Below the pieces are notes generated by a model that did not search any database, had not been told where the DNA came from, and worked only from the letters and a program-made list of their open reading frames with translations. From Candidatus Latescibacterota bacterium (GTDB lineage Bacteria; Latescibacterota; UBA2968; UBA8231), in the NCBI GenBank assembly GCA_965200315.1, contig OZ241362.1, forward strand, positions 4,576,001-4,640,000: DNA of 64,000 bases, given 5' to 3'. Positions 1-31,147 of this stretch are shown in pieces (positions within the stretch are counted from its first letter, which is position 1; each line of letters opens with the position of its first letter). A program made the translations under genes and the position numbers.

Positions 1-1458
1 GAACTCGACGTCATCCCAAATTGGCATACATCCTTGATAGCCAGCAGCGGAATCCACCGGATCGATTCTCGCGCAGGCATCATCAAAGAAGTTTATCCAT
101 CCAAGTACTGGCCTGGGGAGACACTGGGCGACCAGCTCGAATTTGCTCTCAAGTATGACGGAACGAACCTCGCCATTCTCGCCAGCTTGTTCCAGAAAGC
201 ATCAGAGGACGATTTCCTCGCCTATGTCCGCTCGAAACCGACCGGCAAGTACGTCAGGCGCTTGTGGTTTTTCTATGAGTTCCTGACTGGGAAGAGACTC
301 CCGTTGGATGACCTGAAGCGAGGGAACTACATCGATCTACTCGAACCAGATGCCTATTATACGATCGAACCGGGCCACCAAATCCGCCGTCAACGGGTCA
401 ATGACAACCTGCTTGGTGAAAGTCGATTCTGTCCAACAGTTCGTCGCACCGATATTCTGCGAAACTTTGAAACGGACGAGCTGCATACGAGATGCCGACA
501 AGTGGTGTCTCGTTATGCGCCAGAATTGTTACAGCGCGCGCTCAACTACCTGTACACCAAGGAAACAAAATCGTCTTTTGAAATCGAACACATCACCCCC
601 ACCTCGACCCGAACCGAACGCTTCGTAGCTCTGCTCCACCTAGCCGAGCGGAAAGACTTTTGTCGCAAACCGCGGTTAATTGACTTACAGAACCGCATCG
701 TTGACGCCCGGTTCTGCGATGCCGACTATCGAATGACCCAAAATTACGTCGGGCAGAGCGTGGCTTGGCAGCAAGAGCACATCCACTTTGTGGCCCCCAA
801 GCCCGATGATTTAGCTGGCCTGATGGAAGGCCTAGTAGCCACTCACAAACGCATGGAAGTCGGTGCTGTTCCGCCTGTTATTCAAGCTGCTGCCATCACC
901 TATGGATTCGTTTTTCTGCACCCCTTTGAGGACGGTAATGGTCGAATCCATCGCTTCTTAATCCACAATATTCTCGCTCGCCGTGGCTTTACACCCGAAA
1001 GCGTTATGTTTCCCATATCGGCAGTCATGCTAAAAAATCCAGCCGACTATGACGCCTCCCTAAATGCTTTCTCCCAACAGCTAATGCCCTTGGTGGAATA
1101 CACACTCGACCAAGATGGACGCTTGACTGTGCATAACGATACTGCTACATGGTACCGCTATATCGACATGACCCCCCAAGCAGAGACACTTTTTCGCTTC
1201 ATTGATCAGACCATAGATACCGAACTCGCCCGCGAACTGGCCTTCCTAGCCAACTACGATACGACCAAACAAGCCATCCAAGCCATCGTAGATATGCCCG
1301 ACCGACAGATTGACCTCTTCATTCGTTTTTGCCGCCAAAACAACGGCCAACTGTCCGCCCGAAAACGCGCAAGCCACTTTAACGATCTGGCAGATGAAGA
1401 AGTCGATTCTATGGAAGGTGTCGTGCAAGCCACTTATGGGAACGCCACCGTCCCGTAG
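1..1458 (+). CDS. Fic-domain protein (5' end probably outside window)
   Basis: Fic motif HPFEDGNGRIHR; frame is open from base 1. Confidence 0.9.
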   Translation, partial: ELDVIPNWHTSLIASSGIHRIDSRAGIIKEVYPSKYWPGETLGDQLEFALKYDGTNLAILASLFQKASEDDFLAYVRSKPTGKYVRRLWFFYEFLTGKRLPLDDLKRGNYIDLLEPDAYYTIEPGHQIRRQRVNDNLLGESRFCPTVRRTDILRNFETDELHTRCRQVVSRYAPELLQRALNYLYTKETKSSFEIEHITPTSTRTERFVALLHLAERKDFCRKPRLIDLQNRIVDARFCDADYRMTQNYVGQSVAWQQEHIHFVAPKPDDLAGLMEGLVATHKRMEVGAVPPVIQAAAITYGFVFLHPFEDGNGRIHRFLIHNILARRGFTPESVMFPISAVMLKNPADYDASLNAFSQQLMPLVEYTLDQDGRLTVHNDTATWYRYIDMTPQAETLFRFIDQTIDTELARELAFLANYDTTKQAIQAIVDMPDRQIDLFIRFCRQNNGQLSARKRASHFNDLADEEVDSMEGVVQATYGNATVP

Positions 1459-5287: not shown

Positions 5288-5830
5288 TTAGGCCGTCGGT
5301 TGGAGGCGGTCGGCAAACTTCTGGCGAAACGCCTGCATCTTGGGATCGATGACTAGCGCGCAGTAGGGCTGGTTGGGATTGAGCCGGTAGTAGTTTTGGT
5401 GGTACGCCTCGGCCGGCCAAAAGGCACTGGCGGGCGCGATCTCGGTCACGATCGGATCAGCCCAAAGGTCGCTCGTGTCCGCAGCGGCTCTGGCGGCGGC
5501 CGCCGCCGCTTGCTGCTCGGGGCGGTGGTAGAAAATCACCGACCGGTACTGAGTACCGCGATCCGCGCCTTGGCGGTTGAGCGTGGTGGGATCGTGCGTA
5601 CGCCAGAAGACGTAGAGCAAGTAGTCAAAGCTGATGACCTCGGGATCGAATTGCAGTTGCACGACCTCAGCGTGACCAGTCCGACCACTGCAAACGGCCT
5701 CGTACGTAGGTTTTTCCAACGCGCCGCCCATATAGCCAGAGACCGCGCTGGCAACGCCCCGCAGGTCTTGGTACACGGCTTCGACGCACCAGAAGCAACC
5801 CGCGCCCAGAGTGGTAGTTTCCAAACTCAT
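5288..5830 (-). CDS. msrA: Peptide-methionine (S)-S-oxide reductase
   Basis: GAGCFWC, GRTGHAEVV, HDPTTLNRQGADRGTQYRS, AEAYHQNY; true start MSLETTT overlaps the upstream stop. Confidence 0.96.
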   Translation of the reverse strand: MSLETTTLGAGCFWCVEAVYQDLRGVASAVSGYMGGALEKPTYEAVCSGRTGHAEVVQLQFDPEVISFDYLLYVFWRTHDPTTLNRQGADRGTQYRSVIFYHRPEQQAAAAAARAAADTSDLWADPIVTEIAPASAFWPAEAYHQNYYRLNPNQPYCALVIDPKMQAFRQKFADRLQPTA

Positions 5831-6027
5831 CCTCCATCCTCCATCCACTTCTTGTATTGCCGCCACGTGCCGCCCTTGGGGTGCTTCTCTAGGGTGTGAT
5901 GGACCCGCTCGTGGGCTCGATGGTTGTCCTCGACGAGACGGCCCACCCCGCGCCCTTGGGCCCGGTGGACGAACCAGAAAACTAGCGAGAAGAAGATCAG
6001 ATATAGCCCTTTGCCAAAGTATTCCAT
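5827..6027 (-). CDS. Small single-TM hypothetical protein, translationally coupled to msrA
   Basis: GGAGG RBS, hydrophobic N-terminal segment, ATGA overlap with msrA. Confidence 0.55.
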   Translation of the reverse strand: MEYFGKGLYLIFFSLVFWFVHRAQGRGVGRLVEDNHRAHERVHHTLEKHPKGGTWRQYKKWMEDGG

Positions 6028-7104: not shown

Positions 7105-7965
7105 ATGACCTTAGTCGGCAGCGGAGCATTCACCTATGCAGTGCAGCAGGATTGGTTTGAATTGCCGGAAGGCTGGCGCTTTGGCTGGGTTCCAGCGGTC
7201 GCTTGCGATTCCGAAGATCGGGTCTATGTGTACAGCCGCAGCGAGCGTCCCATGGTCGTCTTCGACCGCGAGGGGTGCTTTGTCGCCTCGTGGGGCGAAG
7301 AGGTGCTAAAGGACGCCCACGGCATCTTTATCGACGACCGCGACCAAATCTGGTGCATCGAGCGCGAAACCCACTGCGTGCGCCAGTTCACCCGCGACGG
7401 CGAGCTGCTTTTGACCTTGGGAACGCCAGACCAAGAAGGCGCGGAGGGCCAGCCCTTCCGGCTGCCTACCGACTTAGCGCTCGACGCCGACGGCTATATC
7501 TACGTATCCGACGGCTACGGCAACGCCTGCATCCACAGGTATGCACCCGACGGCGAATTCATCAAGACGTGGGGCCGCCCGGGCAGCGGCCCGGGGGAAT
7601 TCGACCTGCCCCACTGCGTGCGCGTGGACCAACGCGGGCGGCTGCTGGTGGCCGACCGCGCCAACAACCGCATCCAGTTTTTCGACCTCGACGGCAACTA
7701 CCTAGAGGAATGGGGCGGCTTTCACCATCCCGATACCATTTTCCTCGACGGGGATACGGTCTATGTCGCGGAGCTCGACCAGCGGGTGAGCATTCTCAAC
7801 CTCGACGGCGAATGGCTCGCTCAATGGGGCTCGGGCGAGCGCATCGACGCACCGGGAGAATTCCTCGGCTGCCCCCACGGCATTTGGATGGATTCCCGCG
7901 GCGACCTCTACGTGGGGGAAGTGCAAACCGACCATCGCATTCAGAAGTTCGTGCGGCAACACTAA
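7105..7965 (+). CDS. NHL-repeat beta-propeller protein (PAL-like)
   Basis: Repeated F..P.D/HG/V..D..G.IYV.D motifs; YVSDGYGN; VADRANNRIQFF. Confidence 0.88.
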   Translation: MTLVGSGAFTYAVQQDWFELPEGWRFGWVPAVACDSEDRVYVYSRSERPMVVFDREGCFVASWGEEVLKDAHGIFIDDRDQIWCIERETHCVRQFTRDGELLLTLGTPDQEGAEGQPFRLPTDLALDADGYIYVSDGYGNACIHRYAPDGEFIKTWGRPGSGPGEFDLPHCVRVDQRGRLLVADRANNRIQFFDLDGNYLEEWGGFHHPDTIFLDGDTVYVAELDQRVSILNLDGEWLAQWGSGERIDAPGEFLGCPHGIWMDSRGDLYVGEVQTDHRIQKFVRQH

Positions 7966-7976
7966 GGAGGTTGGTG

Positions 7977-9116
7977 ATGAACAAATTTTTGTTGCATCTA
8001 ACGGCTTTAGCGGTGTTGGGAGCCTCTGCCCTAAACGCCCAATCCCCGCAAGTAGGCGATCCGGCCCCCGGTTTCGTCTTGGACCGGCTCGATGGCGGCC
8101 AAGCAGCCTTGAGCGACTTCGCGGGACAAGTGGTGCTGATTTTTTTCGCCGGCTATGGCTGAAGTGCCTGTCTCTCGCGTGCCGAGAGCTTTGAAGAAAT
8201 CTGGCAGGAATTTGCCGACGAGCGCTTTGCCGCCTTGGTTGTCGATGCTTGGGACGGCACTGCGGCACAAGTGCGGGCCCGCTGGCGCTTAGCCAAGGGG
8301 GTTACGATGCCCCTCTTGCTGAACGCCTCCCAGATGACAATCGAGTACGGGCAAACCTACCAGACCTTTGCCATCATCGACCACGAGGGCATCTTCCGCT
8401 TCAAGACTAATTTCCTGATACCCATGAACGACCTCCGCGACGAGGTGATGCTGGCTCTGGCCGATTTGCCTCCCATCGAGGAGGAAGCGGACGAAGTGGA
8501 GGAAGCAGAGGAAACGGTCGAAACGGAGGAAGTGGTCGAAGCGGTCGAAGCGGTCGAAGCGGACGAAGCGGACGAAGCGGACGAAGCGGACGAAGTGGAG
8601 GAAGCAGAGGAAGCGGACGAAGCGGAGGAAGCGGTCGAGGCTGAGGAAACGGAGGAAGCGGTCGAAGTGGTCGAAGTGGTCGAAGCGGTCGAAGCGGAGG
8701 AAACGGCCAACAGCTTCGACGACATGTTTGAACACCTCGATAGGCAAGCGGAGCAAGCGGAGCAAGCGGAGGAAACGGAGGAAACGGACGAAGTGGTGGA
8801 GACGGTGGTGGAGGCGTTTGATCAGGCGTCTGTCCCCCAAGCCTTTTCGCTAGCCCAGAACGCGCCCAATCCGTTCAACGGCGAGACTGTGATCCGCTTT
8901 GCGCTGCCGCAACCGAGCCAAGCCGAGCTGGCGATCTACAACCTGCTCGGCCAGCCAGTGGCTGTGCTCGTACAGGGGCCTAGCGCGGCCGGGACATTCT
9001 CGGTGCGCTGGGACGGCCGCGACCAAATGGGACGAGCGGTGACCAGCGGAGTGTATCTCTACCAGTTGCGAGCCGGCGAGTACACAGAAGTCCGCAAGCT
9101 GCTGCTGCTCCAGTAG
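7977..9116 (+). CDS. Putative exported selenoprotein: signal peptide + AhpC/TSA-type redoxin (UxxC, Sec62) + acidic repeat stalk + FlgD-Ig/T9SS-like C-terminal domain
   Basis: TAAGGAGG RBS; MNKFLLHLTALAVLGASALNA signal; VGDPAPGFVL..LDG...LSDFAGQVVLIFF then TGA(8160-62)-S-A-C, in frame with ORF 8235..9116; SECIS-like hairpin just downstream; C-terminal NPFN...IYNLLGQ...WDGRD...SGVYLYQL...KLLLLQ. Confidence 0.85.
8170..8189 (+). promoter_or_regulatory. Bacterial SECIS-like stem-loop
   Basis: CTCTCG(8172-77)/CGAGAG(8183-88) perfect stem, 5-nt loop CGTGC with G second followed by U, possible bulged U at 8171, loop starts ~16 nt after the UGA. Confidence 0.7.
8478..8816 (+). repeat. Coding minisatellite of degenerate 9-nt units (GAAGCGGAC/GAAGCGGTC/GAAACGGAG) encoding E-[AVT]-[EDV]
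   Basis: Directly visible tandem array; translates to EADEADEAD/EAVEAVE/ETEE. Confidence 0.9.
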
Positions 9117-9132
9117 AGGCACATCCAAGCAA

Positions 9133-9160
9133 CATCTGCGCTCATCGGCGTTCATCGGCG
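9133..9160. repeat. Short 10-nt-period intergenic repeat (CATC[T/G]GCG.T x3)
   Basis: catctgcgct catcggcgtt catcggcg between convergent genes. Confidence 0.6.
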
Positions 9161-9162
9161 GC

Positions 9163-10686
9163 TCAGAAGAAGCGGTTGAGCAGCCGGACTTCGACGCCGG
9201 TAAACCCTAGCACCTCATAGCAGATGCCAGCCGTGCAAGCTAGCCCCGAGCGGCGCTGGCCGGCGAAGACGTTGAGGATGTGGCCCTCGCCAATGTCGGC
9301 CCCAATGTTGAGGCCCCGCCACCACGTGATGCCAGAGGGATCGGCTCCGGTTTCCAACTCGTCGGAGGTGCGCTGGACCTGCACGGCGGCGGAGAGGCTG
9401 GGGGCGCGGTGGACCGCTAGGGCATAGTATTGGTTGGTGTAAGGAAGTGCTAGGTCGCCAAATCGCCGATCGACGTCTTGAAATTGCGCGTCGAACTCGA
9501 AGGTGTAGGACCCGTCTGGCAACCACTCCCAGTGCGTGCCCAAGAGGCGGCTTTTGTCGTCGAGGAGAATCTGGTTGTGGCTAAAGTCGGCAAAAAGCTG
9601 CACATCGGCACTTTGGCCCACGGGCGAATCCATCTGCACAAAGAATTCGCGCAGGACGTTGTCGTCGGCGGTGCCCGAATCGCGGCGGCGCGTGGCGCGG
9701 GTCGCATTGGCAATGAGGATTTGGCCGCTGGGTAGGACATAACTCAGTTCGGCTTGGTAGCCCTGCTCGTCGTCGGCGAGCACATCGTGCGTGATGCGAT
9801 TGAGGAGATAGGCCGAGTGTTCTCGGATTAAGGGCGGAGGGTCGTTGATGTGTTCGAGGGCAAAGTCCTCGTAGTCTTTGTATTCCAAGCTCAAGCCCCA
9901 CGGCCCGGATGCCCAAGTGGCCGCTAGGTACAGGGCGCGGCCCAAACTGCGGTCGAGCGAGAAGAAGCGGTCGAATGCCACATCGCGCTGAGCGTACTCG
10001 CCTTGGAGATCGGCATACACTCCGTTGAGGCCGAGGCGGGCCAGCAAAGGCGCGAGCCGCCAGCGTGCATTAAAGGCCGCGCTTGTTTCTTGCCGCCTGC
10101 CGGCTGGGTAGCGGATGGCGCTAACGCCAACGTCGAAATGCGGATGCGGCTTGAGCTGGAGCGATCCAGCGTGGAGCACGTCTGGACGTCGCTCAATCCC
10201 CTCCAAGCCGGGCGGCAGATTGCTGTTGATCGGCGCACCGCGCAACAGCAGCACTTCGGCCCGCTTGGCTCGGTAGCGCACCTGAACGCCGTCGAGATCG
10301 CGTACGATCTGGTAGCGACGGCGAGCACCCCGCTCCTCAGTGATGACGCCGGGCAGCTCAAAGGCGTGGAGGAGCAAGCCGCTGCCGATGATGGTGTAGA
10401 AATTGCCAACAGTAGCTTCAAAACCACTCCGGCGGTAGGAGGCAGAGCGCTGGAGGAGTTGGCCGTAGTTGCGATTGGTTGCACTAGAGCCAAAAGTCTC
10501 GCCGCGGACCCCGACTTGGAGGTCAGCGAGTGCATAGTCGAGGCTGAACTGGTGGTAGATCGTCCGCAGGTCGCTGGGCTTTGTGCCGGGCAGATTGCCG
10601 ACTTGGCCTTCGGTCAGAGCCGAAAGACGCAGCTCGGCTTGGAGAGGGGCGTCCAGCAGCAGTGTAAGTGCAAAAACGAAGCGCAT
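9163..10686 (-). CDS. DUF6029-like outer-membrane beta-barrel protein
   Basis: Signal peptide, alternating beta-strand pattern, GNFYTIIGSGLLL, LEYKDY, NDPPPL, C-terminal GQRRSGLACTAGIC and terminal Phe. Confidence 0.75.
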   Translation of the reverse strand: MRFVFALTLLLDAPLQAELRLSALTEGQVGNLPGTKPSDLRTIYHQFSLDYALADLQVGVRGETFGSSATNRNYGQLLQRSASYRRSGFEATVGNFYTIIGSGLLLHAFELPGVITEERGARRRYQIVRDLDGVQVRYRAKRAEVLLLRGAPINSNLPPGLEGIERRPDVLHAGSLQLKPHPHFDVGVSAIRYPAGRRQETSAAFNARWRLAPLLARLGLNGVYADLQGEYAQRDVAFDRFFSLDRSLGRALYLAATWASGPWGLSLEYKDYEDFALEHINDPPPLIREHSAYLLNRITHDVLADDEQGYQAELSYVLPSGQILIANATRATRRRDSGTADDNVLREFFVQMDSPVGQSADVQLFADFSHNQILLDDKSRLLGTHWEWLPDGSYTFEFDAQFQDVDRRFGDLALPYTNQYYALAVHRAPSLSAAVQVQRTSDELETGADPSGITWWRGLNIGADIGEGHILNVFAGQRRSGLACTAGICYEVLGFTGVEVRLLNRFF

Positions 10687-10692
10687 GGCTTG

Positions 10693-10731
10693 GGTCCTAG
10701 CTATAATGTGGTTAGTGGTGGTCCTAGCTAT
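10693..10731 (+). promoter_or_regulatory. 12-bp direct repeat GGTCCTAGCTAT overlapping a TATAAT -10 box in a divergent promoter region
   Basis: Copies at 10693-10704 and 10720-10731; TATAAT at 10702-10707. Confidence 0.5.
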
Positions 10732-10766
10732 CGGCTACTCAAATTTTAGCAGAACGGAGCTTAAAC

Positions 10767-11261
10767 ATGAAACCAATTTTCGCATGGGCAACCTGCTTGC
10801 TGCTCGTCGCCGCGGCTCGCGCCGAAAAAGCACCGCAACTCGTGTTGGAAAACCTCGATGGATCGACCTTTTTGCTGGTGGAGGCGCTCAAAAAAGGGCC
10901 GGTGGTCTTCGACTTCTGGGCGACTTGGTGCAAGCCCTGTATCAAGAGTCTGCCCAAGGTCCAAGCCCTATCCGAAAAATACGCCGAGCGCGGCGTCCAA
11001 GTGCTGACGATCAACGTCGATGGCCCGAGAAACCTGCCCAAAGTGCGGCCCTTTATGCAGCGCCACAAGCTCAAACTGCCGGTTTTGCTCGACAAGACCA
11101 ACGAGGTGCTCAAGCAATTTCACCTATCCGGCGTCCCGGCGACCCTGATTATTGCGGCTGACGGGACGGTGTGGTACAAGCATCAGGGGTATCGGCCCGG
11201 CGACGAGCAGAAGCTCAAGGCCAAACTAGACGAATTGCTCGGCCCCCCAGAGGACGAATAA
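10767..11261 (+). CDS. TlpA-family thiol-disulfide reductase (exported)
   Basis: Signal peptide, DFWATWCKPC, GVP cis-Pro loop. Confidence 0.92.
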   Translation: MKPIFAWATCLLLVAAARAEKAPQLVLENLDGSTFLLVEALKKGPVVFDFWATWCKPCIKSLPKVQALSEKYAERGVQVLTINVDGPRNLPKVRPFMQRHKLKLPVLLDKTNEVLKQFHLSGVPATLIIAADGTVWYKHQGYRPGDEQKLKAKLDELLGPPEDE

Positions 11262-13095: not shown

Positions 13096-15441
13096 CTAAT
13101 AGACAACCGAAATCGCACCTGTGTGCGTCCCCGGCCCCGACTCGGCTCCCAGATCGAGGCGGTAGAGATACATGCCCGGCGCGACCACGGCTCCCGCCTC
13201 GTCGCGAGCCGTCCAAGTGAAGCGATGACCTGTTGAGGTCGGAGTGGATTCGACCACAGCGACTTGGCGGCCCGCTAGGTCGTAGAGCGCGAGCATAGGA
13301 GTTGCTGCGTCTAACTTAAAGACCACAAAGTGCATGTCGAGCGCGTCGTTGACCCCGTCGCCGTTGGGCGTGATCACGGGCGAGGCCAGTTCCAATGAGT
13401 CGATGAGTTGGCCGTGCTCGGCTAGCTCGGGTAGCATTACTACCTGAGAGCGGCGCTCGGCTGGCTCGACCGACTGCCAAAGACCGGGCCGCTCGCTCAA
13501 CCCGAGGTCGAGGGGAAAAACCGTGGCATTGTGCAAGACTCGCGTCGTGAAACCCACCCGAACCGAGTCCCCGGTCACGATGTGTGGCAAGGCGACCAAC
13601 AGCGAGTCGCCCCGCTGATCGACGCGGGCAGGTTCGACCGGCGCGGAGCCGATGTGTAGCTCGAGGTCCTCGGCGTCAATCCGGCCCGGCACTGTAAAGC
13701 GCAACAGGTCGAAACCCGAGTCCTCAGCCTCCATCTGCGGCCACAGTGTATAGGTGAAACGGGTGTCCTCGTTGGGGATGGCTTGGCGCGGCTCAATGCG
13801 GCCCACCGCACCCTGTAACAGCGCGTCCTCAAACTCGACCGAGAGCGAATGGACCACCGGTGCCACGTTGGGGGCATCGGTGGAGAGGATCATCTCCAGC
13901 AGGATGAAGCGGCGCGGGCTTTCCGATTGAAATGCCTCGCCCGGGAACGGATAGACATTGCTCCACTCACCCCAATCCTCGCCCACCACGAGCGTCGTAT
14001 CGACCGGGCCGCGCAGTACCTTGGGCGAACTCTTCCATTTCTCCTCGGTGACCTGTTCGCCGATCTTGTTGTAAAACGTATAGACCGGCTCTAGCGAGTT
14101 GCCCGAGCGCGAGCGCAGTTGCAGGCGGGTGCCCGCGGCCAACTCGGCATCCCAAGAGAGGCTTTTGATGACTTTTGGACGCCCGTCGCCCGAGGTTTGT
14201 CCTAAGTCGATGAAGTCCGAGTGCAATACTACTTCAGCGGGATAGCCCGGAGAGAAAAGCATGAACTCGGCCCATTTGACGATGCCCCAGCCGGTGTCCT
14301 TGATGCCGTGCCAGAAGAAGTAGCGCATCTTGCGCGGCTTGAACATATAGCGAATGTAGAGCAGGCGGTCGGCATTGGGATTGATGTGGGTCAGGAGCTC
14401 TGTGTAGTCAAACGCATCGGGCACGGGCAGATTGGAACTGAGGCTGTGGGTGCCATCTGAATAGAGTACGGTATGACCCGGGCCGGTGCCACTGATCGAG
14501 AAGCCCACCAAGCCCTCGTCGGGCCTAAAGGAATAGAGAAAGAATTCATCGACGAAGAACACCGCCCCCAAATCCACTCCGAACCACACCCCACCCTCCT
14601 TCCAGCCGAGGCTGCCATACGAAGAGCCGATGAGGTTGTTGGTGTTCATGTCGGCGTCGAAGAGGTTTTGCGGATCGACCGAATTGATCCCATTGACAAA
14701 ACGGCCCCGCTGCATGGTGCCGATGCTGATGTTGTCGCCGATGCCGCGGACCTCAATTTCGGCCAAGGCCGCGTCCGGCGTCTTCTCTTCGGCCTCAATG
14801 CGAATGCGCTGGATCACCCGATAGTTGTTTTTGGCCATCGGGTCGATACCCAAGCCCTCGTCGAGCTGAAATACACTGTCGCGAGCAGTGAATCCGAGGG
14901 GGATGACGATTTCGCTGGCCGCGTTGGGCCGGGTCGTGCGGAAAAGCGGATCCAGCAGCACCAAGTCGTCTTGGACCGAGATGCGGGTCCCCGTGCTGCC
15001 GTACACGGTAAACTGGTGGAAGGGACGCGCGCCCTCCTCGTCGGGAAAAACGAGGCGTATCTCCCGGGCCAACACGGCGCGGCCCAAGTCTATCTCAATG
15101 GCCCAGTCCTCGACGGCATCCGCTGGATCTGGACGCCAGAAGGTCTGGAGATTCCCGTCGATGATGAGGTCCGCATCGGCAGGGTTGGAGGTCGCCTCCC
15201 AGAGGCCGCCCGTAGTTCGCCCGCGGCTTTTGCTCTCATAGGAGAAGCGATGGGCATCGGCGACTGCGTTGATGTCCTTGCGGAACTTGACGAGCTGTAG
15301 CTGGCCGTTCTCGCCCACTTCAGTCAGGCCGAGAGGCACCTGCCAAGTCGCCCAAGCATCTTGCCCTTGGAAGGTCAGGGTTTCGCTGCTAACGGCCATG
15401 GCCACAACCGCGACGCAGACGAGCGGCAAAAGAAATCGCAT
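13096..15441 (-). CDS. Secreted protein with C-terminal TPNGDG.ND / FlgD-Ig-like domain
   Basis: Signal peptide; discoidin-like IDLGR/VDLGA segments; C-terminal VITPNGDGVND...YDLAGRQV...W...APGMYLY. Confidence 0.8.
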   Translation of the reverse strand: MRFLLPLVCVAVVAMAVSSETLTFQGQDAWATWQVPLGLTEVGENGQLQLVKFRKDINAVADAHRFSYESKSRGRTTGGLWEATSNPADADLIIDGNLQTFWRPDPADAVEDWAIEIDLGRAVLAREIRLVFPDEEGARPFHQFTVYGSTGTRISVQDDLVLLDPLFRTTRPNAASEIVIPLGFTARDSVFQLDEGLGIDPMAKNNYRVIQRIRIEAEEKTPDAALAEIEVRGIGDNISIGTMQRGRFVNGINSVDPQNLFDADMNTNNLIGSSYGSLGWKEGGVWFGVDLGAVFFVDEFFLYSFRPDEGLVGFSISGTGPGHTVLYSDGTHSLSSNLPVPDAFDYTELLTHINPNADRLLYIRYMFKPRKMRYFFWHGIKDTGWGIVKWAEFMLFSPGYPAEVVLHSDFIDLGQTSGDGRPKVIKSLSWDAELAAGTRLQLRSRSGNSLEPVYTFYNKIGEQVTEEKWKSSPKVLRGPVDTTLVVGEDWGEWSNVYPFPGEAFQSESPRRFILLEMILSTDAPNVAPVVHSLSVEFEDALLQGAVGRIEPRQAIPNEDTRFTYTLWPQMEAEDSGFDLLRFTVPGRIDAEDLELHIGSAPVEPARVDQRGDSLLVALPHIVTGDSVRVGFTTRVLHNATVFPLDLGLSERPGLWQSVEPAERRSQVVMLPELAEHGQLIDSLELASPVITPNGDGVNDALDMHFVVFKLDAATPMLALYDLAGRQVAVVESTPTSTGHRFTWTARDEAGAVVAPGMYLYRLDLGAESGPGTHTGAISVVY

Positions 15442-15454: not shown

Positions 15455-17506
15455 TCAGTACGCTACGCCCACAGGTCGGAGCAAGGCGGCAGCGCGGTGC
15501 TCGGATTGCAGGACCACGGAGATTAGGTACACGCCCGGCGGCAGGGCATGGCCGGCTGAGTCGCGTCCGTCCCAGCGGGCCGTTTGCGGGCCGGCTGTTT
15601 GCAATCCTTGGGACACGGTCGCCACGTGGCGACCGTCGAGCGCATAGACCGCTAGTTCGACGGGCACTTGTTCCGGCAGGCCATAGAGGGAATAGGCCAT
15701 GCGAAGCTCGTCGTGAACGCCGTCGCCATTGGGCGTCAACACAGGCGTTGAAAAGCGCAAGTTTTGCACCAAAGCAGGTTGTTGATCCGAAACGCTAAGG
15801 ACGCGCAGACTGTTCGTGGAGAGCAGTTCGCTGGCGTCGCCAGAGACGATGGGTTGAGGCAAGGTCTCGAGCTCTGAGTCGGTGACGGTGCCCAAGAACG
15901 TGGTGGCTAGTTCAAACACTTCCGCGGCAAAGACGATGCGCAACGGCGCGTTGTTGGCGCGGGTAACGCGCTCTGGCAGGAGTACTGTCAGGCCGTCATT
16001 CTCTTCGCGGATGGCGGCCGGGTCGGTCGCTTGGCCGCCGACGAGCAACTCTTTGAACGCGGGCCGGGCACCCGTTTGGATATGCACTTGGTCGAAGCCG
16101 CGCTGATTCCCCCCTGAGAAGGAGGCCGACAGGTCGTACGCAAATTCGACCATTTCGCCCAAGGCCACCTCGCCGAACCCGTGCGCGGGCCGTGGGTTGG
16201 CGAGCGGGGCCACTTCGCCGAGGACGCGCGCCGCTAACAGCGGTGCCCGCTCGACCCACAGCGAATCCAAGCGCACAAAATCCGCAAAGCGAGTACTGTG
16301 CAACGTGATGAACACCTGTATGAAGGAGCCGCTGTCGAGATGGAGCGGCAGGCCCGACTGAGTGGTGGGCGTTGACCAGAAGGTCCAGTTGTCGCGGTCG
16401 TAGGTAATTGCGGCCCGCATTCCAGGACGGGGGCTGCGCTGGACAAAGTCACAGGAGGCGCACGTGCGGGCAAACCCGGTGCGGAGATCGTTCTCGTAGC
16501 GGGCGCGGGAGACAACCTTCTCCTTGCCGGTGACCGTGTACTCGTGATAGATGTTCGGGTCGTCGTCTCGACCTGTGCGAACCTCGACCTCGGCGAAAGC
16601 CCGTGCATCGGGAGCCGCGACGGCCTCGCCAGCGACAAAGCGCATCGGCGTGGCGGTAAAGAACAGCCGGCCAAAGTTTTGCTCGGCCCCGAGGTCGATG
16701 ATTTTGGAGCGGTACGTGGCCCTCTTGGGAAAGCCCTCGCCATAGACCTCGAACTCGCTGATGGTGCCCAAGAGCGAGCGAGCTTGATTGCCTTGGCCGC
16801 CGGACGTGCCGCTAACGCGGGTCAAGGCCGTCTCGTCGATGATGGAGAATTTGCGGGCCCAGCGAAAGAAGCGCACGTATTGCTGGTCGAAACCAATGCG
16901 CACGTCAGGCGCAAAATTTTGCGTCGGCTCGGCGACAATTCTTGCGAGGGGCAGCGGGCCTTTGATGGCGAAAATCTCGCTGTTTTTCTCTTGAATCGAG
17001 ATTTGGAAGGCCGGCGTCGAATCCGTGCGCAGCGGTGTGCCGTCGGAGCGGAAACCACCCGAAGGGGTGTGGAAGCCAAAGGTGTGTGCCGGCATGGGTA
17101 CGGCCAAGTCAATGGTGAAAAACTGCTTGCCAACGCCCTCGGCCTTGGAGGAATTGTAAGTGGTGCTGTCGGCATCTATGAGCGCGACGCCGTTTTCGGT
17201 TGGGTCGCCGTTGCCCTCGTTCCACTTCCAAATGCGCGGTCGCTCGCCGTCGATATAGCCCAGTTCTTTGGGCTGGCGAAAGGTCGTCCAGTTGCTGAGC
17301 AGGGAAATGATGTTGACGCCCGGCTCGACGTGCACTGGCTGAATGGCACCAAGGACGCGGTCAAAGTCAATCATAATGCTGGCCGTGTCTTGGCCAGCCC
17401 AAGGCTGGCTGCCGCCGAGTTGCCAAGTCGTCACCTCGGCTTTTAGGGCGGCCGGAGCCAGAAGCGCGATAGCGACGATGAGCGCGAAGCTGCGGATATT
17501 CAGCAT
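15455..17506 (-). CDS. Secreted protein, paralogous architecture, C-terminal TPNGDG.HD / FlgD-Ig-like domain
   Basis: Signal peptide MLNIRSFALIVAIALLAPAALKA; LTPNGDGVHD...WDGRD...PGVYL; GGAG RBS. Confidence 0.8.
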   Translation of the reverse strand: MLNIRSFALIVAIALLAPAALKAEVTTWQLGGSQPWAGQDTASIMIDFDRVLGAIQPVHVEPGVNIISLLSNWTTFRQPKELGYIDGERPRIWKWNEGNGDPTENGVALIDADSTTYNSSKAEGVGKQFFTIDLAVPMPAHTFGFHTPSGGFRSDGTPLRTDSTPAFQISIQEKNSEIFAIKGPLPLARIVAEPTQNFAPDVRIGFDQQYVRFFRWARKFSIIDETALTRVSGTSGGQGNQARSLLGTISEFEVYGEGFPKRATYRSKIIDLGAEQNFGRLFFTATPMRFVAGEAVAAPDARAFAEVEVRTGRDDDPNIYHEYTVTGKEKVVSRARYENDLRTGFARTCASCDFVQRSPRPGMRAAITYDRDNWTFWSTPTTQSGLPLHLDSGSFIQVFITLHSTRFADFVRLDSLWVERAPLLAARVLGEVAPLANPRPAHGFGEVALGEMVEFAYDLSASFSGGNQRGFDQVHIQTGARPAFKELLVGGQATDPAAIREENDGLTVLLPERVTRANNAPLRIVFAAEVFELATTFLGTVTDSELETLPQPIVSGDASELLSTNSLRVLSVSDQQPALVQNLRFSTPVLTPNGDGVHDELRMAYSLYGLPEQVPVELAVYALDGRHVATVSQGLQTAGPQTARWDGRDSAGHALPPGVYLISVVLQSEHRAAALLRPVGVAY

Positions 17507-17516
17507 ATTCTGACTC

Positions 17517-18257
17517 CTAGCGAAAATGCACATCGGCGGCATGCAGGGCACCCGGGCCGTTTTGCATCCTCATTAGCTGGCGCTGACGCAGGCTCAAGCT
17601 GTCCCACCACTCGGGCGGGAAGCCGTCGTGCGGATCGAGTTGGAAGACCAGCATGTGCTTTCTATAGTGGCCGAAGAGGGCGTGGCGGTTGCGGTCGCCG
17701 GTGTTGGCACCACCGCCGTGCCAGCACTGGCCGTTGAAGACGATCACCGAGCCGGCCGGGGCTGTCGGCTGCACCTCGTGCTGCACCGCGAATCCCTCCG
17801 GGGGCGCGGCGAGGCCGCTCTTGTGAGAGCCGGGCACCACGCGGGTGCCGCCGATTGCAGGGCTAAAGTCGTCGAGCATCCACACCGTATTCATCATCAC
17901 CGGCGTGTCCATGTTGAGCATATAGGCGGGGATGTCGCTGTGCAGGTGTTGGTAGCCGTCGCCGGGGCGGACGATGCGCGAGTTGAGGCTGCCCAAAATC
18001 AGCGAGGGCTCGAGAAAGTGTTCGAGGATGGGCAAGACGCGGGGGTGGTCGATGCACTGGTGGAAGATGCGATCCATGACCGGGAGATTGGCCACGTGGC
18101 GGGCCGAGCCGCGATGGGTGTGTTCGGTGCCGTGCTCTTGTTCGCAGCGGATCAGGGCTTGGCGCATGGCCGCGGCCGTGTCGGAATCGAGGACGCTTTC
18201 GAGCAGAGCGAAACCGTAGATTTCGATTTCTTGGATGGCTTGTTCGCGTTCGTTCAT
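17517..18257 (-). CDS. Phytanoyl-CoA dioxygenase (PhyH) family
   Basis: LHSD, GGTRVVPGSH, WHGGGAN...R motifs. Confidence 0.92.
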   Translation of the reverse strand: MNEREQAIQEIEIYGFALLESVLDSDTAAAMRQALIRCEQEHGTEHTHRGSARHVANLPVMDRIFHQCIDHPRVLPILEHFLEPSLILGSLNSRIVRPGDGYQHLHSDIPAYMLNMDTPVMMNTVWMLDDFSPAIGGTRVVPGSHKSGLAAPPEGFAVQHEVQPTAPAGSVIVFNGQCWHGGGANTGDRNRHALFGHYRKHMLVFQLDPHDGFPPEWWDSLSLRQRQLMRMQNGPGALHAADVHFR

Positions 18258-18433
18258 AATAAAAAGTCTCCTACAAGGGCTAATAAATAAACCCGCACAG
18301 TTCGCTTCGGCAACTGACTGCTTCCAATCTAACAGGAAACTCGTGCCATGTATTCAAACCTGTATCGTCTTGTGTATCTCGACAGATGTGACCATGGGGC
18401 ACAGACTGACCCTGCTACATTGACGGGAGGTAC

Positions 18434-18670
18434 TTAATCGTCAAATTCCGGTGGTGGATCAAATAGACTATATGAGTCAGTTGTCAAAAATAATTCTTTG
18501 AGATCGTCCTGTTGCAAAAATTCCAGTGCTTCATTTACGGATTCAAACTCGTAGACTTTCACTTCGCCTAAGTTAGATATTAATTCCACCAAGACTTTAT
18601 TGACTTCTCTCTCTATTGAGTCGTCAAGAATGTTCTCGATCAATACCTCGAGACATTTACTCCTTCTCAA
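18434..18670 (-). CDS. Low-GC hypothetical ORF or remnant downstream of the methyltransferase
   Basis: AT-rich open frame with uncertain start. Confidence 0.3.
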   Translation of the reverse strand: MRRSKCLEVLIENILDDSIEREVNKVLVELISNLGEVKVYEFESVNEALEFLQQDDLKELFLTTDSYSLFDPPPEFDD

Positions 18671-19588
18671 GTATTACAATGGATTCTTGTAAAGACACCC
18701 CATGTCGCTGAGGATTTACTTTCCATTTATCGCCTCTCTGTCGTAGCACTTCCAATGAATAAGATTTAAAGCCAATCGAGCAGCCTATTTCTCCTATTAG
18801 TCTATCAGTAGGGATATGAACACCATAAGGAGCAGAATCACCCAATACAAATAAAGCACTGGAATTAGGCTTTAGTACTCTATATACCTCCTTTATTACC
18901 TTGTAAATATCGTTAAAATATCCAATCACCATAAGATCATAGCTCTTCTTTCCTCCTTTGACTTTTCTAATTTTACTCAGCTTATTCGCTGCCGCTTGTA
19001 TGAATTGAGCTATTTCAGGACTGTTTGTTTTGATCTCTTCGTCTAGTAAGTACTTAGGGTCGCTCCTCGATATTTGGGTTGTAGCGGACGTCATCAATTT
19101 AGATCGTACTTTATCCGTAATATCCTTCCAGTTTTTTGCCAATCCCCAAAAGTAAAGTTCCAGTCGAGTTCTATCAGAGTAATCAAAATTGTTCAAATAT
19201 GGAGGAGAAGTGAATACATGGTCCACGCTCTCGTCAGATAGGTACGCCGATACATCTGTAGAGCTACCAAAAATCAAGCGGTGTTTTGATTTTAGATACT
19301 TTCTATCAGCTTGTCTTTTCATGTCGGTGAGATCGTCTAGCATGGACATTGCAAGTGCGTTAAATTCCAGTAGAGCATCTTTATCTTCAGAGGTTATTTT
19401 TTCTTTTTTGGGCGCAATATAGGGCCATCCTGTTGCAGCACTGGAAATTTCTCTAAGCAACGCCGTCAACACTACAAAGAGGAACATATTTTCCTTTTGA
19501 TGAGATTCATAATCATAGTATATTTTTTGCAAGGTGAAAAGTTTACTCAATGTCTCTTTTTTATAACACTTTAATACTAATTCTGGAA
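18657..19588 (-). pseudogene. DNA methyltransferase (N4-C/N6-A type), C-terminal part, interrupted by IS1595 element
   Basis: VFTSPPYLNNFDY catalytic motif IV, VYRVLKP, LGDS; low GC. Confidence 0.88.
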
Positions 19589-19644
19589 GGCAATTAGTAT
19601 TTAAGGGCTTGACTGTCCCTTGATTCTCTAGTACTTTCCTCTGT

Positions 19645-20155
19645 ATGAACAGAGTTAGACTTGGCGATATTTGTACCGTCCGCAAGGGGGCTGCTCCGAC
19701 CGCCTTTGATGGAGATATACCCTATCTGACGATGGAGTACCTTCGCGGGGAAAAAAACGAACCTCCGCTAGTCAAACCCGATTCTAATAGCCTTCTGGCG
19801 TCCGATGGAGACATCCTACTGCTATGGGATGGGGCAAACGCTGGGGACTTTATACGAGCCAAGAGAGGCGTAGTATCTTCGACGGTTGCCCTGCTTAATC
19901 CCAATACTCAAATCGTTGATCTTGACTTTTTCTACGCAGCCTGTAAGAGAAAAAGCAACAAGAACGGGTACTACGATCCCCCACGTACATGGGAAATCTC
20001 TTGCAACTATCCTCTTCGATCTACCCCCCCTCTCCGAACAACAAGTTATAGCGGAACTATTGGGGAAAGCCCGTCAAAGCGTTGAATTAGCCCAGCAGCT
20101 AACCGAAAAATACCGACTACAAGAAAAAGCACTAAGGAAACGTTTGATACCATGA
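19645..20155 (+). pseudogene. hsdS: Single-TRD (half) type I RM specificity subunit HsdS, frameshifted near 19945
   Basis: VRLGDICTVRKG...IPYL...GDILLLWDG, then in the +1 frame GTTIPHV...LPPLSEQQVIAELL. Confidence 0.75.
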
Positions 20156-20222
20156 GAAAGCCCGTAGAAGGTGCGAACTTCTACGGGCTAAGTACTACCC
20201 CTAACCAACAGAAAGGACGACG

Positions 20223-20474
20223 ATGGCGATTGTGCCAATTACGGGGAAAAATCTCTTGCATGTACTAGCCGAGATGGGGATAGAAAAACAATTTCAAATC
20301 TATAAGGCAGGAGAGATTCGCGTTTTGCCTGTTGAGCCGGACCCTGCTTCTCACTTTTTGCTGTCTTTCGATGAATGCCACTATTTGATTCCTCGAAATG
20401 AGGCTCTTGTACTGGCTGATTTTTTTGCAAATTACCACCAGAACCACCCTGCTGAGGAGCAGTCATTTGATTGA
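20223..20474 (+). CDS. Hypothetical passenger protein of the IS1595 element
   Basis: AAAGGA RBS, 83-aa ORF inside the IRs. Confidence 0.55.
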   Translation: MAIVPITGKNLLHVLAEMGIEKQFQIYKAGEIRVLPVEPDPASHFLLSFDECHYLIPRNEALVLADFFANYHQNHPAEEQSFD

Positions 20475-20484
20475 CTCCGTATGG

Positions 20485-21357
20485 CTACGCAAAGCAGGCC
20501 CGCAAGAAACCGTTGAAGGCGTCGGCGTCTTTGCGGTGGTTGTATTTCCAGACCGCTTCTGCTACGAACAAGGGCGACCAACCTTTCGTGTACTTATGAT
20601 GCGAGCCGTACCAAGCGCGTTTGAGCAACGACCAAAAGCCTTCAATGGTATTGGTGTGTAGGGTCTTGTTGCTGGCGTCAACGTATTCCTCGGTGCGGTG
20701 GTTGACGGTGCGGTGCGGCATCAGCTTGTGAGCGTTGAAATAAACCGTGTACTCGTCCGTAATCAACGACGATTCTTCTACCTCGACAGACTGCGCGATA
20801 AAGTCCAAGACGGTCGCGGCCTTAGTGTCGTCTGGTACAGCGGCTTTGACGCGCCCCCCGCGCTGGACGGCTCCAACGACGGGCGTTTTGCCAGTACCGC
20901 GCCCGCGCTTGTTGTTGTCGTTCTTGTAGCGAGGCTTACCGCCTACATACGTTTCGTCGGCCTCGATGATGCCGCGCAGTAGGGCCTTTTCGTCCGATGC
21001 CATAGCGGCGCGAATCCGCTGTTGCATGAACCACGCGCTTTTCTGGTTGAGTTCCAGATCGCGGGCTAGCTGGCAACTCGACAAGCTCTTTTTGGCGTTG
21101 GCCATTAGCGAGATGGCCAAGAACCACTTTTGCAGCGGGATTTTGGTCCCCTGAAAAATGGTTTGGGACAAGACATTAAAACTAGAATGGCAGCCGTGGC
21201 AGTTCCAGCGGCCTACACGCTCATTCTCCGCTTTGCGGGCAACGTCACAATCGCCGCACAACGGGCAATAGGGGGCATTATTCCAGCGGATTTGCTCTAG
21301 ATGAGCGATGCAAGCGGCTTGGTCGGGGTACTGATTGAAGATGCTTATTAGGTTCAT
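20485..21357 (-). CDS. IS1595-family (ISXO2-like DDE) transposase
   Basis: CPLCG...WNCHGC zinc ribbon, EADETYVGG, ITDEY, HTNTIEGFWSLLKR; GGAGG RBS. Confidence 0.95.
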   Translation of the reverse strand: MNLISIFNQYPDQAACIAHLEQIRWNNAPYCPLCGDCDVARKAENERVGRWNCHGCHSSFNVLSQTIFQGTKIPLQKWFLAISLMANAKKSLSSCQLARDLELNQKSAWFMQQRIRAAMASDEKALLRGIIEADETYVGGKPRYKNDNNKRGRGTGKTPVVGAVQRGGRVKAAVPDDTKAATVLDFIAQSVEVEESSLITDEYTVYFNAHKLMPHRTVNHRTEEYVDASNKTLHTNTIEGFWSLLKRAWYGSHHKYTKGWSPLFVAEAVWKYNHRKDADAFNGFLRACFA

Positions 21358-21431
21358 TTTCGTACCTCCTTTAACTACTATAAAGATAGGAAAATAAAGA
21401 AGATATGGCAAGCCCTTAAATACTAATTGCC

Positions 21432-21869
21432 TTACGGAAAGTAATTAGAGAGAGAAAAATTAGTAGCTTCAGTTAAAGCACTGTACCAGGATTCAAAATT
21501 TGTATTTAGGTGATGGATAAATTTTCTGATCTCCTTTTCGTCAACCTCCCATTCCATTTTTGCCTTTGCTATTTCGTACACAAAAGGATGAGCTTCAGTG
21601 CCTATGGAGTCGATACCCATTGACTTGGCAGTTACGTTCGTTGTTCCCGATCCCATGAAGGGATCGTAAACGACCATGCCTTTGGCAATTTTGAACCGCT
21701 CAAATGAATGCGCTACGGCCTTATATGAAAATCCGGCAGGATAGGTAAACCATCGATGAACAGGTGCTCTGAGGCTATCCTTAAACGTTCCCCAGCTTTT
21801 AACAGCGTCTTCCTTCACATCAGAAGTCTCATCTGCAAAAAGCGATAACTGGCTGACGTAAGTGCTCAA
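21432..21869 (-). pseudogene. DNA methyltransferase, N-terminal part
   Basis: HRWFTYPAGFS and VYDPFMGSGTT (SAM-binding motif I); ends at the IS boundary. Confidence 0.88.
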
Positions 21870-22096
21870 AATATCCCTCCATACCCCTTGGTATTGGGCC
21901 TTTTTTATGTTTCAATCCTCGGGATTACTTCATCCATTGTGTAGTGGACGAATTGACACTTAAGTTCGGTGAGCTCGTAAGGTTTAGTATCATCAAAAGC
22001 TGATGTCATGACTCTAGAAGAAGAGCGCGACCTACCAAGTGTAGAGTAGTTTATGAAAAACCTTCTGATGCGCAAGTATCTCATAAAAAGCGGAGA

Positions 22097-29973: not shown

Positions 29974-30600
29974 TCATGTCGGTGATTCTCTTCCTGCCAA
30001 TTTTTGCCATGCGGTTCGCACCGCTCGATAGCTTTCCCGCGTATCCACATCCACGAAGATGCCCTCGTCTTCGACAGGTACTTCAATGACATTGGCTGCG
30101 TTTTTTGCCAAGACCGATCGCGCTCCCCGATCGCCAGTCAACGCGAGCAAGGCATTTCGATGAGTGCTGCCGATAGCTACCGGATGGCCGCGTCGCCCGT
30201 TGCTCACTGGCACGGCGATGGTCTCGCTGCTTTGCAACGCCTCGGCGACCTTTAGCATCGTCTCACTTGCCATCTGCGGCATATCCCCTAGCGCAAAGAG
30301 ATATCCTTGCTCGCCGACTGCCGCTTCCACACCCACTCTGATAGAGGCGGCCATTCCCTCGGCAAAATCGGGGTTGTGTACCAGCCGCACGGGATAGTGG
30401 CTCAACGCTTCCTCTACCTCTGCCCGCTGATACCCTGTCACTACGATTACCTCCCCCAAACCCACCTCGCATATTCGCTCTACCACAACTTGGAGGACGC
30501 ATTGCTGCTGCCAAGGCAGCAGCAACTTATTGGCACCCTCCATCCTAGAGGAACTTCCCGCCGCTAGTAAGATTCCGCTAAGGTTTGCGAATCTGGTCAT
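29974..30600 (-). CDS. mocA: Molybdenum cofactor cytidylyltransferase-like nucleotidyltransferase
   Basis: LAAGSSSRM..NKLLL, LGDMP, GHPV, GDRGA, DVDT; divergent from cox genes. Confidence 0.85.
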   Translation of the reverse strand: MTRFANLSGILLAAGSSSRMEGANKLLLPWQQQCVLQVVVERICEVGLGEVIVVTGYQRAEVEEALSHYPVRLVHNPDFAEGMAASIRVGVEAAVGEQGYLFALGDMPQMASETMLKVAEALQSSETIAVPVSNGRRGHPVAIGSTHRNALLALTGDRGARSVLAKNAANVIEVPVEDEGIFVDVDTRESYRAVRTAWQKLAGRESPT

Positions 30601-30712: not shown

Positions 30713-31147
30713 ATGCAGCTTTCAGGCTCTCATACCTTTAGCGCTCCGCGGCAAGTCATGTGGGACTTGCTCAACGACCCCGAGGTCTTGGCGCGCATCA
30801 CCCCCGGCGTCGATACCTTGGAGCAGACCGGCCCCGGCCAGTACCAAGCCGTGCTGCACATCAAAATGGGGCCGATCAACAGTACCTTCAACGGTGCGCT
30901 CCAAGTCGTCGATAGCAAGGAGCCGGAAAGCTATCGCCTGCTCATCAATGTCGATGGCAAGATCGGCCAGATCGCGGCCGAGGGCCGCGTCCAGCTCGCC
31001 GAGCAAGGCGATGAGACCACGGTGGCCGTCGAAGGTGGCTCGCAGTTGACGGGCCGCTTGGCGAGCATGGGCCAGCGCCTGCTGTCGGGTGTGGCGCGGA
31101 TGTTTACCAATCAGTTTTTCAAGGCGCTGGAACGCGAGATACCTTAA
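30713..31147 (+). CDS. coxG: CoxG (SRPBCC) protein
   Basis: WDLLNDPEVLARITPG, GRLASMGQRLL...F. Confidence 0.88.
   Translation: MQLSGSHTFSAPRQVMWDLLNDPEVLARITPGVDTLEQTGPGQYQAVLHIKMGPINSTFNGALQVVDSKEPESYRLLINVDGKIGQIAAEGRVQLAEQGDETTVAVEGGSQLTGRLASMGQRLLSGVARMFTNQFFKALEREIP

Follow-up and report, generated by a model that had tools for sequence, protein, structure and literature searches.

A candidate thiol/selenol conduit across the outer membrane of FCB-group bacteria, built from a TlpA-like protein, a DUF6029 barrel and a selenocysteine redoxin

Results

We analysed a stretch of 64,000 nucleotides from Candidatus Latescibacterota bacterium (GenBank assembly GCA_965200315.1, contig OZ241362.1, positions 4,576,001 to 4,640,000; hereafter the window, numbered from its first letter), in which three adjacent genes encode a redoxin with selenocysteine (Sec, U), an outer-membrane beta-barrel of the DUF6029 family and a TlpA-like thiol:disulfide oxidoreductase. 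We found that the TlpA-like protein is predicted, with high confidence, to sit active-site face first in the periplasmic half of the barrel lumen, and that the genes recur together in other genomes, including several phyla of the Fibrobacterota-Chlorobiota-Bacteroidota (FCB) group. Our best reading, to which we give somewhat less than an even chance, is that the trio constitutes one envelope machine, a conduit for reducing equivalents to the surface redoxin. More tentatively still, the trio may be a 'porin-thioredoxin' complex, the first conduit to carry electrons over a bacterial outer membrane by thiol/selenol chemistry, and may recharge a surface (seleno)redoxin in FCB-group bacteria.

Predicted complex of the TlpA-like protein with the barrel

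Upon predicting the complex of the mature barrel (alignment of 27 sequences) and the mature TlpA-like protein (alignment of 45) in three runs, we observed an interface score (ipSAE) of 0.89 in all three, against 0.12 for the best control. Among solved complexes 116 of 157 attained that mark, and among mismatched pairs 2 of 215, counts that hold roughly, since custom alignments were used here. The runs share at least 96% of their contacts, and each partner has a predicted local distance difference test score (pLDDT) of at least 86. We know of no similar solved complex, and a prediction drawn from a memorised structure therefore seems unlikely.

The model comprises about 155 predicted contacts, with TlpA lying against nearly every periplasmic turn of the barrel (residues 18-24, 48-57, 85-90, 139, 179-185, 210-228, 255-268, 313-325, 385-395, 426-432, 468-470 and 503-505). 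It is also predicted to touch two barrel loops that fold down (97-113, 282-291) and the tip of a hairpin that bears the barrel cysteines (486-487), and it is this combination of periplasmic turns, down-folded loops and hairpin tip that places it in the periplasmic half of the lumen. On the TlpA side the interface consists of T34-W35-C36-K37, the G67-P76 loop and helix, residues 100-103 by the cis-proline, and R124-D127, segments that coincide with the motifs distinguishing its subgroup. Low-error pairs join the invariant barrel residues S266, E268 and E313 with the invariant TlpA residues K73 and P76.

Recurrence of the three genes

A genome scan with the barrel alignment gave 229 pattern matches, 208 of which were confirmed; the best 80 of these 208 were kept, corresponding to 79 loci labelled Latescibacterota, Gemmatimonadota (metagenome-assembled genomes), Calditrichota, Bacteroidota (Balneolaceae, Rhodothermales, Bacteroidales and the isolate Aliifodinibius sp.) and, in one case, Planctomycetota. 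Barrel identities across the loci range from 31 to 93%, and the closest relatives of the window barrel come from Latescibacterota genomes. We observe a tlpA orthologue adjoining the barrel gene in 75 of the 79 loci, with a contig end on the relevant side in the other four (L046, L048, L049, L078), and a redoxin adjoining it in 61 (49 with Sec, 12 with Cys), spread over several FCB phyla. The full trio appears in five gene arrangements (22, 13, 11, 11 and 2 loci). The original prediction had proposed the trio as a redox relay and had made this depend on the genes co-occurring elsewhere, which the survey bears out.

In Calditrichota and Bacteroidota loci the genes form a tlpA-barrel-redoxin operon, all in one direction and a few bases apart. 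In the window the barrel gene lies on the minus strand, convergent with the redoxin gene and divergent from tlpA, so that the trio is not one operon there. All three genes are confirmed and real (Table 1), and each of the redox motifs for which they had been singled out as adjacent exported proteins (UxxC in the redoxin, CTAGIC in the barrel, WCKPC in TlpA) is present. The redoxin is absent next to the barrel in 18 of the 79 loci, three of them (L001, L046, L049) cut by contig ends and 13 (L055, L058, L062-L071, L074) carrying tlpA and then the barrel only. In two Latescibacterota loci, L033 (9013-10764, minus strand) and L034, a cohesin-domain protein with a sorting tail occupies the redoxin's place beside tlpA, and the genome OZ244870.1 carries the whole trio twice (L051, L052).

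Table 1. Features of the trio in the window, with positions, strand and details
Feature	Position	Strand	Details
Putative surface redoxin gene	7977..9116	+	379 aa, translation with TGA=U
In-frame TGA = U62, first residue of UxxC, in GYGUSAC	8160..8162	+	alignment, fold
SECIS-like hairpin, CUCUCG/CGAGAG around CGUGC loop	8173..8187	+	RNAalifold, 42 sequences
C-terminal sorting domain of redoxin	8865..9113	+	residues 297-379
DUF6029 outer-membrane barrel	9163..10686	-	507 aa, signal peptide, Pfam PF19494
Codons for C484-T-A-G-I-C489	9220..9237	-	sole two cysteines of barrel
TlpA-like periplasmic thiol:disulfide oxidoreductase	10767..11261	+	164 aa, AhpC-TSA 5.1e-23
WCKPC active site, precursor 54-58, mature 35-39	10926..10940	+	

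Upon clustering the nearby open reading frames (ORFs), we found no further neighbour conserved beyond close relatives: msrA, an NHL-repeat protein and an aldo-keto reductase are each found in 24 loci, and in 0, 0 and 3, respectively, of 29 distant loci. The msrA gene, which had been cited upstream of the trio, is indeed present (5291-5860, minus strand; its domain begins at the N-terminus and no signal peptide is seen), but its linkage is lost beyond close relatives, and we rejected it as a part of the system (syntenic in 24 of 79 loci, all close relatives, and in 0 of 29 distant ones). The NHL-repeat beta-propeller gene (7105-7965, plus strand, no evident signal peptide) ends 11 bases before the redoxin start and was rejected as a core part on the same counts (24 of 79, 0 of 29). 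It had further been suggested that DUF6029 genes in Bacteroidota cluster with TlpA and Omp28-like thioredoxin proteins; the TlpA half holds in 75 of 79 loci, whereas the Omp28 half fails in all eight redoxins searched, the window redoxin and seven distant ones having no match to the Pfam Omp28 profile at E <= 0.01.

The DUF6029 barrel

The barrel protein scores 64 bits against Pfam PF19494 (cut-off 27, E 1.4e-17, over profile positions 61-338 of 538 only), and its suspected likeness to DUF6029 is thereby placed above the gathering cut-off. PF19494 is precomputed on 95 of 96 of its relatives and its nearest atlas clusters are DUF6029; NCBIfam gave no match for the barrel. The AlphaFold2 model (pLDDT 82.4, predicted template modelling score 0.79) has 24 long strands, and together with the signal peptide and the terminal aromatic residue (...NRFF) this even strand count is what characterises an outer-membrane barrel. 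Foldseek places usher pores of 24 strands, FimD and PapC, at the top (E 5.6e-11, query-normalised template modelling score, TMq, about 0.5, about 10% identity), followed by TonB-dependent transporters and AlgE, with outer-membrane barrels only among the matches. An excerpt of PMC9603273 describes an HHpred likeness of Wzi-barrel-only proteins to DUF6029 and suggests a role in polysaccharide handling.

The cysteine pair lies on a small beta-hairpin (481-485 and 488-492) between strand 23 and the last strand of the model, with pLDDT below 50 at 485-488. With the termini and the short turns placed in the periplasm, a hairpin in this position would, by topology, form the last surface loop. CxxxxC is found in 77 of the 79 loci, the two exceptions being barrels without their C-terminus. 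As one of the two search patterns held the Cys motif, an unbiased count has to come from the 18 loci outside that pattern's matches; the barrel is complete in 16 of these, and all 16 carry CxxxxC. Its two residues are the only cysteines in 27 of 28 aligned barrels. The best conserved barrel segments are the loops 97-130, 274-306 (…NDPPPLIREH…LLNR.TH…) and 479-494, which are also those of lowest pLDDT in the lone barrel model; low confidence of conserved loops in a barrel modelled alone fits a need for a partner. A buried structural disulfide, inaccessible from either side, would speak against a relay. The evidence on this is indirect, namely that topology puts the pair in the last surface loop and that the predicted interface includes both the hairpin tip and TlpA residues 34-37, and it fits a relay.

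The TlpA-like protein

The tlpA product matches Pfam AhpC-TSA, Redoxin and Thioredoxin, and its sequence matches in the PDB are ResA, DsbE and TlpA. It combines WCxPC, a cis-proline loop V-P-A-T and a signal peptide, as members of the TlpA/ResA/CcmG family do, and stays below the NCBIfam cut-offs for the named orthologues ResA (102 of 170 bits), rhizobial TlpA (53.3 of 230) and DsbE (41.1 of 123). The W, C, P and C of the active site are invariant in 28 orthologues and WCxPC is intact in 75 of 75 loci; C10, C55 and C58 are the only cysteines here. In this protein and its orthologues a short, cleavable-looking signal peptide ends in an AxA-type site (…ARA/EKAP here) directly before the thioredoxin domain, so that the protein is probably soluble in the periplasm. 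The barrel-linked TlpA proteins form a conserved subgroup of their own, with D66, R69, K73, D90, G122 and G126 invariant besides the active site.

The 80-base gap between the barrel and tlpA genes (10687-10766) contains a direct repeat of GGTCCTAGCTAT. In the closest related loci only about 40 bases separate the start codons of the two genes, and no such repeat is present; the repeat resembles a duplication, specific to the window, within the promoter region that both genes share.

The selenocysteine codon

The redoxin frame is open only when the TGA is read through, and related loci are open on both sides of the codon. At the position aligned to U62, 49 of the 61 redoxin-bearing loci have TGA and 12 have a Cys codon. 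A five-pair hairpin resembling a selenocysteine insertion sequence (SECIS), 14-28 nt past the U of the UGA, is kept in 42 distinct sequences; its cells pair in 97.1% of cases, versus 86.3% in shuffles and 21-60% with the partner slid. At pair 16:26, 21 sequences have GC and 19 have UA, a difference that amounts in essence to a single compensatory change separating two clades. Folded by itself, the 66-nt stretch that follows the TGA is no stabler than shuffles (z = 0.05). Because U and Cys alternate across these loci and the hairpin is conserved, the TGA is more than a chance stop, and the selenocysteine codon is real. In public protein sets only the part after the TGA is recorded (12 matches, P0097-P0108, none spanning more than 62% of the queried domain, and two bearing the name 'T9SS type A sorting domain-containing protein'). 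As these records start after the TGA, the redoxin domain is invisible in current annotation; if our reading is true, a widespread selenoprotein is systematically truncated there.

The putative surface redoxin

In the redoxin, a signal peptide is followed by a thioredoxin-fold domain of ResA/TlpA likeness that contains U62-x-x-C65 (the protein's only Cys/Sec residues), an acidic, Glu/Ala/Val-rich linker of about 130 residues, and a C-terminal domain of the T9SS (type IX secretion system) type. Its Pfam matches are AhpC-TSA (1.8e-12), Redoxin (3.1e-09) and FlgD_ig (6.8e-10). The tail scores 39.4 bits against the NCBIfam T9SS sorting domain TIGR04183 (cut-off 23) and 39.2 bits against FlgD_ig (cut-off 27), with Por_Secre_tail at 21 bits, under its cut-off of 27. 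Residues 23-160, the read-through domain that spans the TGA codon, are modelled by AlphaFold2 at pLDDT 96.9, and the best Foldseek matches are ResA and other TlpA-like proteins (TM 0.84-0.89), with peroxiredoxins lower. The alignment lacks the cis-proline of classical thioredoxins, and the only invariant residues of the domain are A8, F11, G37, U/C40 and C43. Curated NCBIfam names gave sub-threshold matches only.

Searching library-wide for relatives with the Cys form, we obtained 4060 representatives when the threshold was E <= 1e-3 and 220 when it was E <= 1e-10. A length of 255-275 residues together with the motif FFG[YN]xCPxC is frequent among them, and the dipeptide forms seen most often are CPYC (17), CPFC (16), CPHC (16) and CPSC (13). 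Four relatives of 334-730 residues (P0229, P0230, P0232, P0235) carry two redoxin domains and two CxxC per chain. We rejected two other identities for the redoxin. A Sco-like copper site, for which the FFGYxCPxC motif might be taken, finds no Pfam Sco match at E <= 0.01 and no conserved His. Peroxiredoxins in the strict sense have a peroxidatic Cys in PxxxTxxC and a conserved Arg; the active site here, G-x-x-[U/C]-x-x-C, stands at the ResA/TlpA position, with no invariant Arg, which disfavours an AhpC/TSA peroxiredoxin.

Most redoxins of the survey end in a T9SS-type tail; L072, L075 and L077 exceed the cut-off for Por_Secre_tail, and L054 that for FlgD_ig. Three (L056, L076, L079) have a lipoprotein signal in place of the sorting tail, and in L076 this reads C-S-K-D-D-D, which we take to resemble a Bacteroidota surface-export signal. 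Judged by these signals, the redoxin appears to be routed outward in every lineage, by two different means, and would thus be a surface protein. A Balneolaceae genome (L056, 8488-9823) has two tandem redoxins after the barrel, the lipoprotein form and then the sorting-tail form.

Other features of the window

Downstream of the trio, two large proteins (13099-15441 and 15458-17551, both minus strand) have a similar C-terminal sorting tail (CHU_C / FlgD_ig), the first of them together with an F5/8 type C domain; with two further such tails near the locus, the organism would appear to have many cargoes of this secretion type. The window as a whole has a G+C content of about 60% and gave 0 matches to Rfam. 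A low-G+C island at 18000-22000 (0.435-0.484 vs about 0.6) holds DNA-methylase fragments (18660-19685, 21435-21869) split by an IS1595-family transposase (20488-21411), and a fragment of a type I restriction-modification specificity subunit (19645-20082); apparently an insertion sequence has disrupted a restriction-modification gene. On the plus strand, a CoxG-like gene and 2Fe-2S, molybdopterin and FAD subunits stand in a row at 30713-34915, forming a cluster of the CO-dehydrogenase/xanthine-dehydrogenase type, with a MobA-like gene at 29977-30600. A HicB-family gene followed by a PIN-domain gene (51205-52110, plus strand) is likely a toxin-antitoxin pair, and a Fic/DOC-domain protein is encoded at the window start (34-1455, plus strand).

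Discussion

We propose the following sequence of events for the conduit. TlpA would be recharged at the inner membrane, presumably by a CcdA/DsbD-type protein encoded elsewhere, and would dock into the 24-stranded DUF6029 barrel, there meeting the conserved loops folded down from the surface side, the CxxxxC hairpin included. Thiol-disulfide exchange would then pass from TlpA to the lumen-facing Cys hairpin, and from the hairpin to the surface-tethered redoxin domain (UxxC in the window, CPxC in other loci), which in turn may reduce an external target such as oxidised surface proteins, peroxides, external disulfides or metalloids. The surface location of the redoxin, its contact with the barrel, the flow of electrons and its direction, their source and the substrate are what we infer in this account.

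Several observations weigh against such a conduit. Sixteen loci have tlpA and barrel with no adjoining redoxin, a contig end being involved only in L001, and the redoxin is thus not obligatory in cis; in one Latescibacterota paralogue group tilS and ftsH stand in its place (L065). Neither ccdA nor dsbD is found among the conserved neighbours or the scanned ORFs of the window, and the conserved neighbours include no T9SS parts or Sec machinery. Within the 64-kb window, no selA, selB or selD was found among the scanned ORFs, nor any tRNA, and the scanned ORFs likewise include no T9SS parts. A T9SS in Latescibacterota is an assumption of our model, and among Creative-Commons PubMed Central papers and bioRxiv we found none linking Latescibacter* with type IX secretion. 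Residue conservation at the predicted interface is also no higher than elsewhere (barrel 0.559 vs 0.548 for the rest, permutation p 0.35; TlpA 0.613 vs 0.611, p 0.49), and we therefore do not count it as independent support for the complex. Finally, a plug that fills the lumen could equally be purely structural.

That last thought leads to one of two unlikely alternatives, in which the complex is a plug and barrel like LptD/LptE: TlpA would act as plug, chaperone or isomerase, C484-C489 would staple the last loop, the barrel would do another job, e.g. polysaccharide export, and the redoxin would be a separate cargo with an indirect link. CxxxxC across a hairpin is a common disulfide staple, the universal pair is TlpA and barrel (75 of 79) with the redoxin missing in 18, and the predicted complex does resemble a plug; the polysaccharide role suggested for DUF6029 in the excerpt of PMC9603273 points the same way. 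Such a plug leaves unexplained, however, why a surface-routed U/CxxC redoxin stands beside the pair in five gene orders across phyla, and why TlpA keeps its WCxPC intact in 75 loci with the active site facing the barrel loops, and no polysaccharide export genes are found among the conserved neighbours.

We likewise consider it unlikely that the trio serves redox-assisted uptake, with the surface redoxin capturing a thiol-reactive substrate from outside (a disulfide, a polysulfide, or a selenium or metal species) as a mixed (seleno)sulfide, the barrel admitting it, TlpA resolving or reducing it at the periplasmic mouth, and the Cys hairpin gating or handing over, so that matter crosses and not only electrons. 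The conservation of the trio serves this explanation as well as it does the conduit, and a large barrel whose fold resembles transport pores (ushers, TonB-dependent transporters, AlgE) suits it. A cis-proline is usual in protein-disulfide reductases, and a redoxin that lacks it could indicate a small-molecule substrate. The contacts predicted for TlpA, however, take in nearly the whole periplasmic rim as well as lumen loops and would close the channel for as long as TlpA stays; the conserved neighbours include no transporter that could take over the next step, and the recycling of the surface redoxin is left without an account.

Far less probable is an export pore, in which the usher-sized barrel moves the folded TlpA or redoxin domain outward and the predicted complex is cargo in transit. 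TlpA is indeed predicted within the lumen, and the best fold matches, 24-strand ushers, do pass folded domains, but that likeness is just TM about 0.5 at 10% identity and the barrel has no periplasmic targeting domains. The redoxin, moreover, already has an export signal of its own (T9SS-type domain or lipobox), and an external reductase with no electron supply makes little sense. That the three are chance neighbours, unrelated exported proteins with the TGA an ordinary stop splitting a decayed gene, is barely credible, for although the genes lie on different strands of the window, not in one operon, and the 66 nt that follow the TGA show no unusual stability (z = 0.05), they co-occur in 75 and 61 of 79 loci in five arrangements, the TGA has open frames on either side in 49 loci and is Cys in 12, its hairpin shows a compensatory change, the read-through domain models at pLDDT 96.9, and the 31-93% barrel identities and varied gene orders oppose spread by one recent mobile element.

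Under the conduit reading, the trio bears on the problem of how a diderm cell keeps a thiol enzyme reduced on its outer surface. To our knowledge, known thiol relays stop in the periplasm and known trans-outer-membrane electron paths use haems, and in Creative-Commons PubMed Central papers and bioRxiv we found neither the trio nor a thioredoxin-in-barrel complex described. If true, it would give DUF6029 a first function and define a dedicated TlpA subfamily. Even under the rival explanations, the complex, with a thioredoxin-fold protein as the plug of an outer-membrane barrel, would be of a new kind. The question is testable, as the cultured isolate Aliifodinibius sp. (L079) carries the Cys form.

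Comparison with known systems

The closest functional parallel, and the best-fitting model for the predicted complex, is offered by the porin-cytochrome conduits across the outer membrane, MtrCAB of Shewanella and Pcc of Geobacter, as described in excerpts of PMC5971433, PMC4282303 and PMC4245776. As in these, a barrel would form a sheath, a periplasmic redox protein would be inserted in it, and a surface redox protein is encoded together with both. The trio has no haems, CxxCH or cytochrome domains; it has instead thioredoxin folds with two-electron thiol/selenol exchange, a chemistry that requires physical contact between cysteines, not electron hopping. Its barrel, with 24 predicted strands, belongs to DUF6029 and not to MtrB, with no homology. 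We regard the trio as possibly working like a porin-cytochrome conduit, by analogy, and not as a member of that class.

In LptD-LptE a very large barrel encloses a small protein, soluble or lipid-anchored, and the barrel's disulfides matter for its maturation. The plug-and-barrel build is shared with the predicted TlpA-barrel complex, whereas no sequence or detected fold relation to the trio exists, LptE is not redox-active, and LptDE moves lipopolysaccharide. DsbD/CcdA is an inner-membrane thiol relay that ends in periplasmic reductases of the TlpA/CcmG type, and the original prediction had cast the trio as its outer-membrane analogue. Of that relay proposal, the conserved trio, the predicted TlpA-barrel complex and the hairpin tip at its interface speak in favour, and stepwise thiol-disulfide exchange across a membrane would be common to both systems. 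The analogy itself, however, appears weaker than that with MtrCAB or with an LptDE-like protein inside a barrel: in DsbD the Cys pair lies in alpha-helical segments of one inner-membrane protein, as opposed to a pair in a beta-barrel loop and a separate, docked thioredoxin fold here, and DsbD/CcdA has no homology to the trio.

Both the TlpA-like protein and the redoxin domain belong by sequence and fold to the TlpA/ResA/CcmG family, from which the redoxin differs in lacking the cis-proline and in carrying surface-sorting signals. The T9SS cargo HBP35 of Porphyromonas gingivalis, which has a thioredoxin motif, is a precedent for a thioredoxin-type protein reaching the surface by way of a C-terminal sorting domain; it has no selenocysteine, and we know of no TlpA or DUF6029 partners for it. 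Electron-fed thioredoxin folds outside the cell, resisting external oxidative stress, are otherwise represented by the surface lipoproteins Etrx1 and Etrx2 of Streptococcus pneumoniae, which act with CcdA and MsrAB2 (excerpt of PMC3914529). Etrx2 is among both the fold matches (2yp6, TMq 0.83) and the sequence matches of the redoxin. Its host is Gram-positive, with no barrel partner and no selenocysteine, and CcdA can supply Etrx directly there, as the cell has no outer membrane in between; in the FCB-group bacteria the docked TlpA and the DUF6029 barrel may carry the reducing equivalents over that additional membrane.

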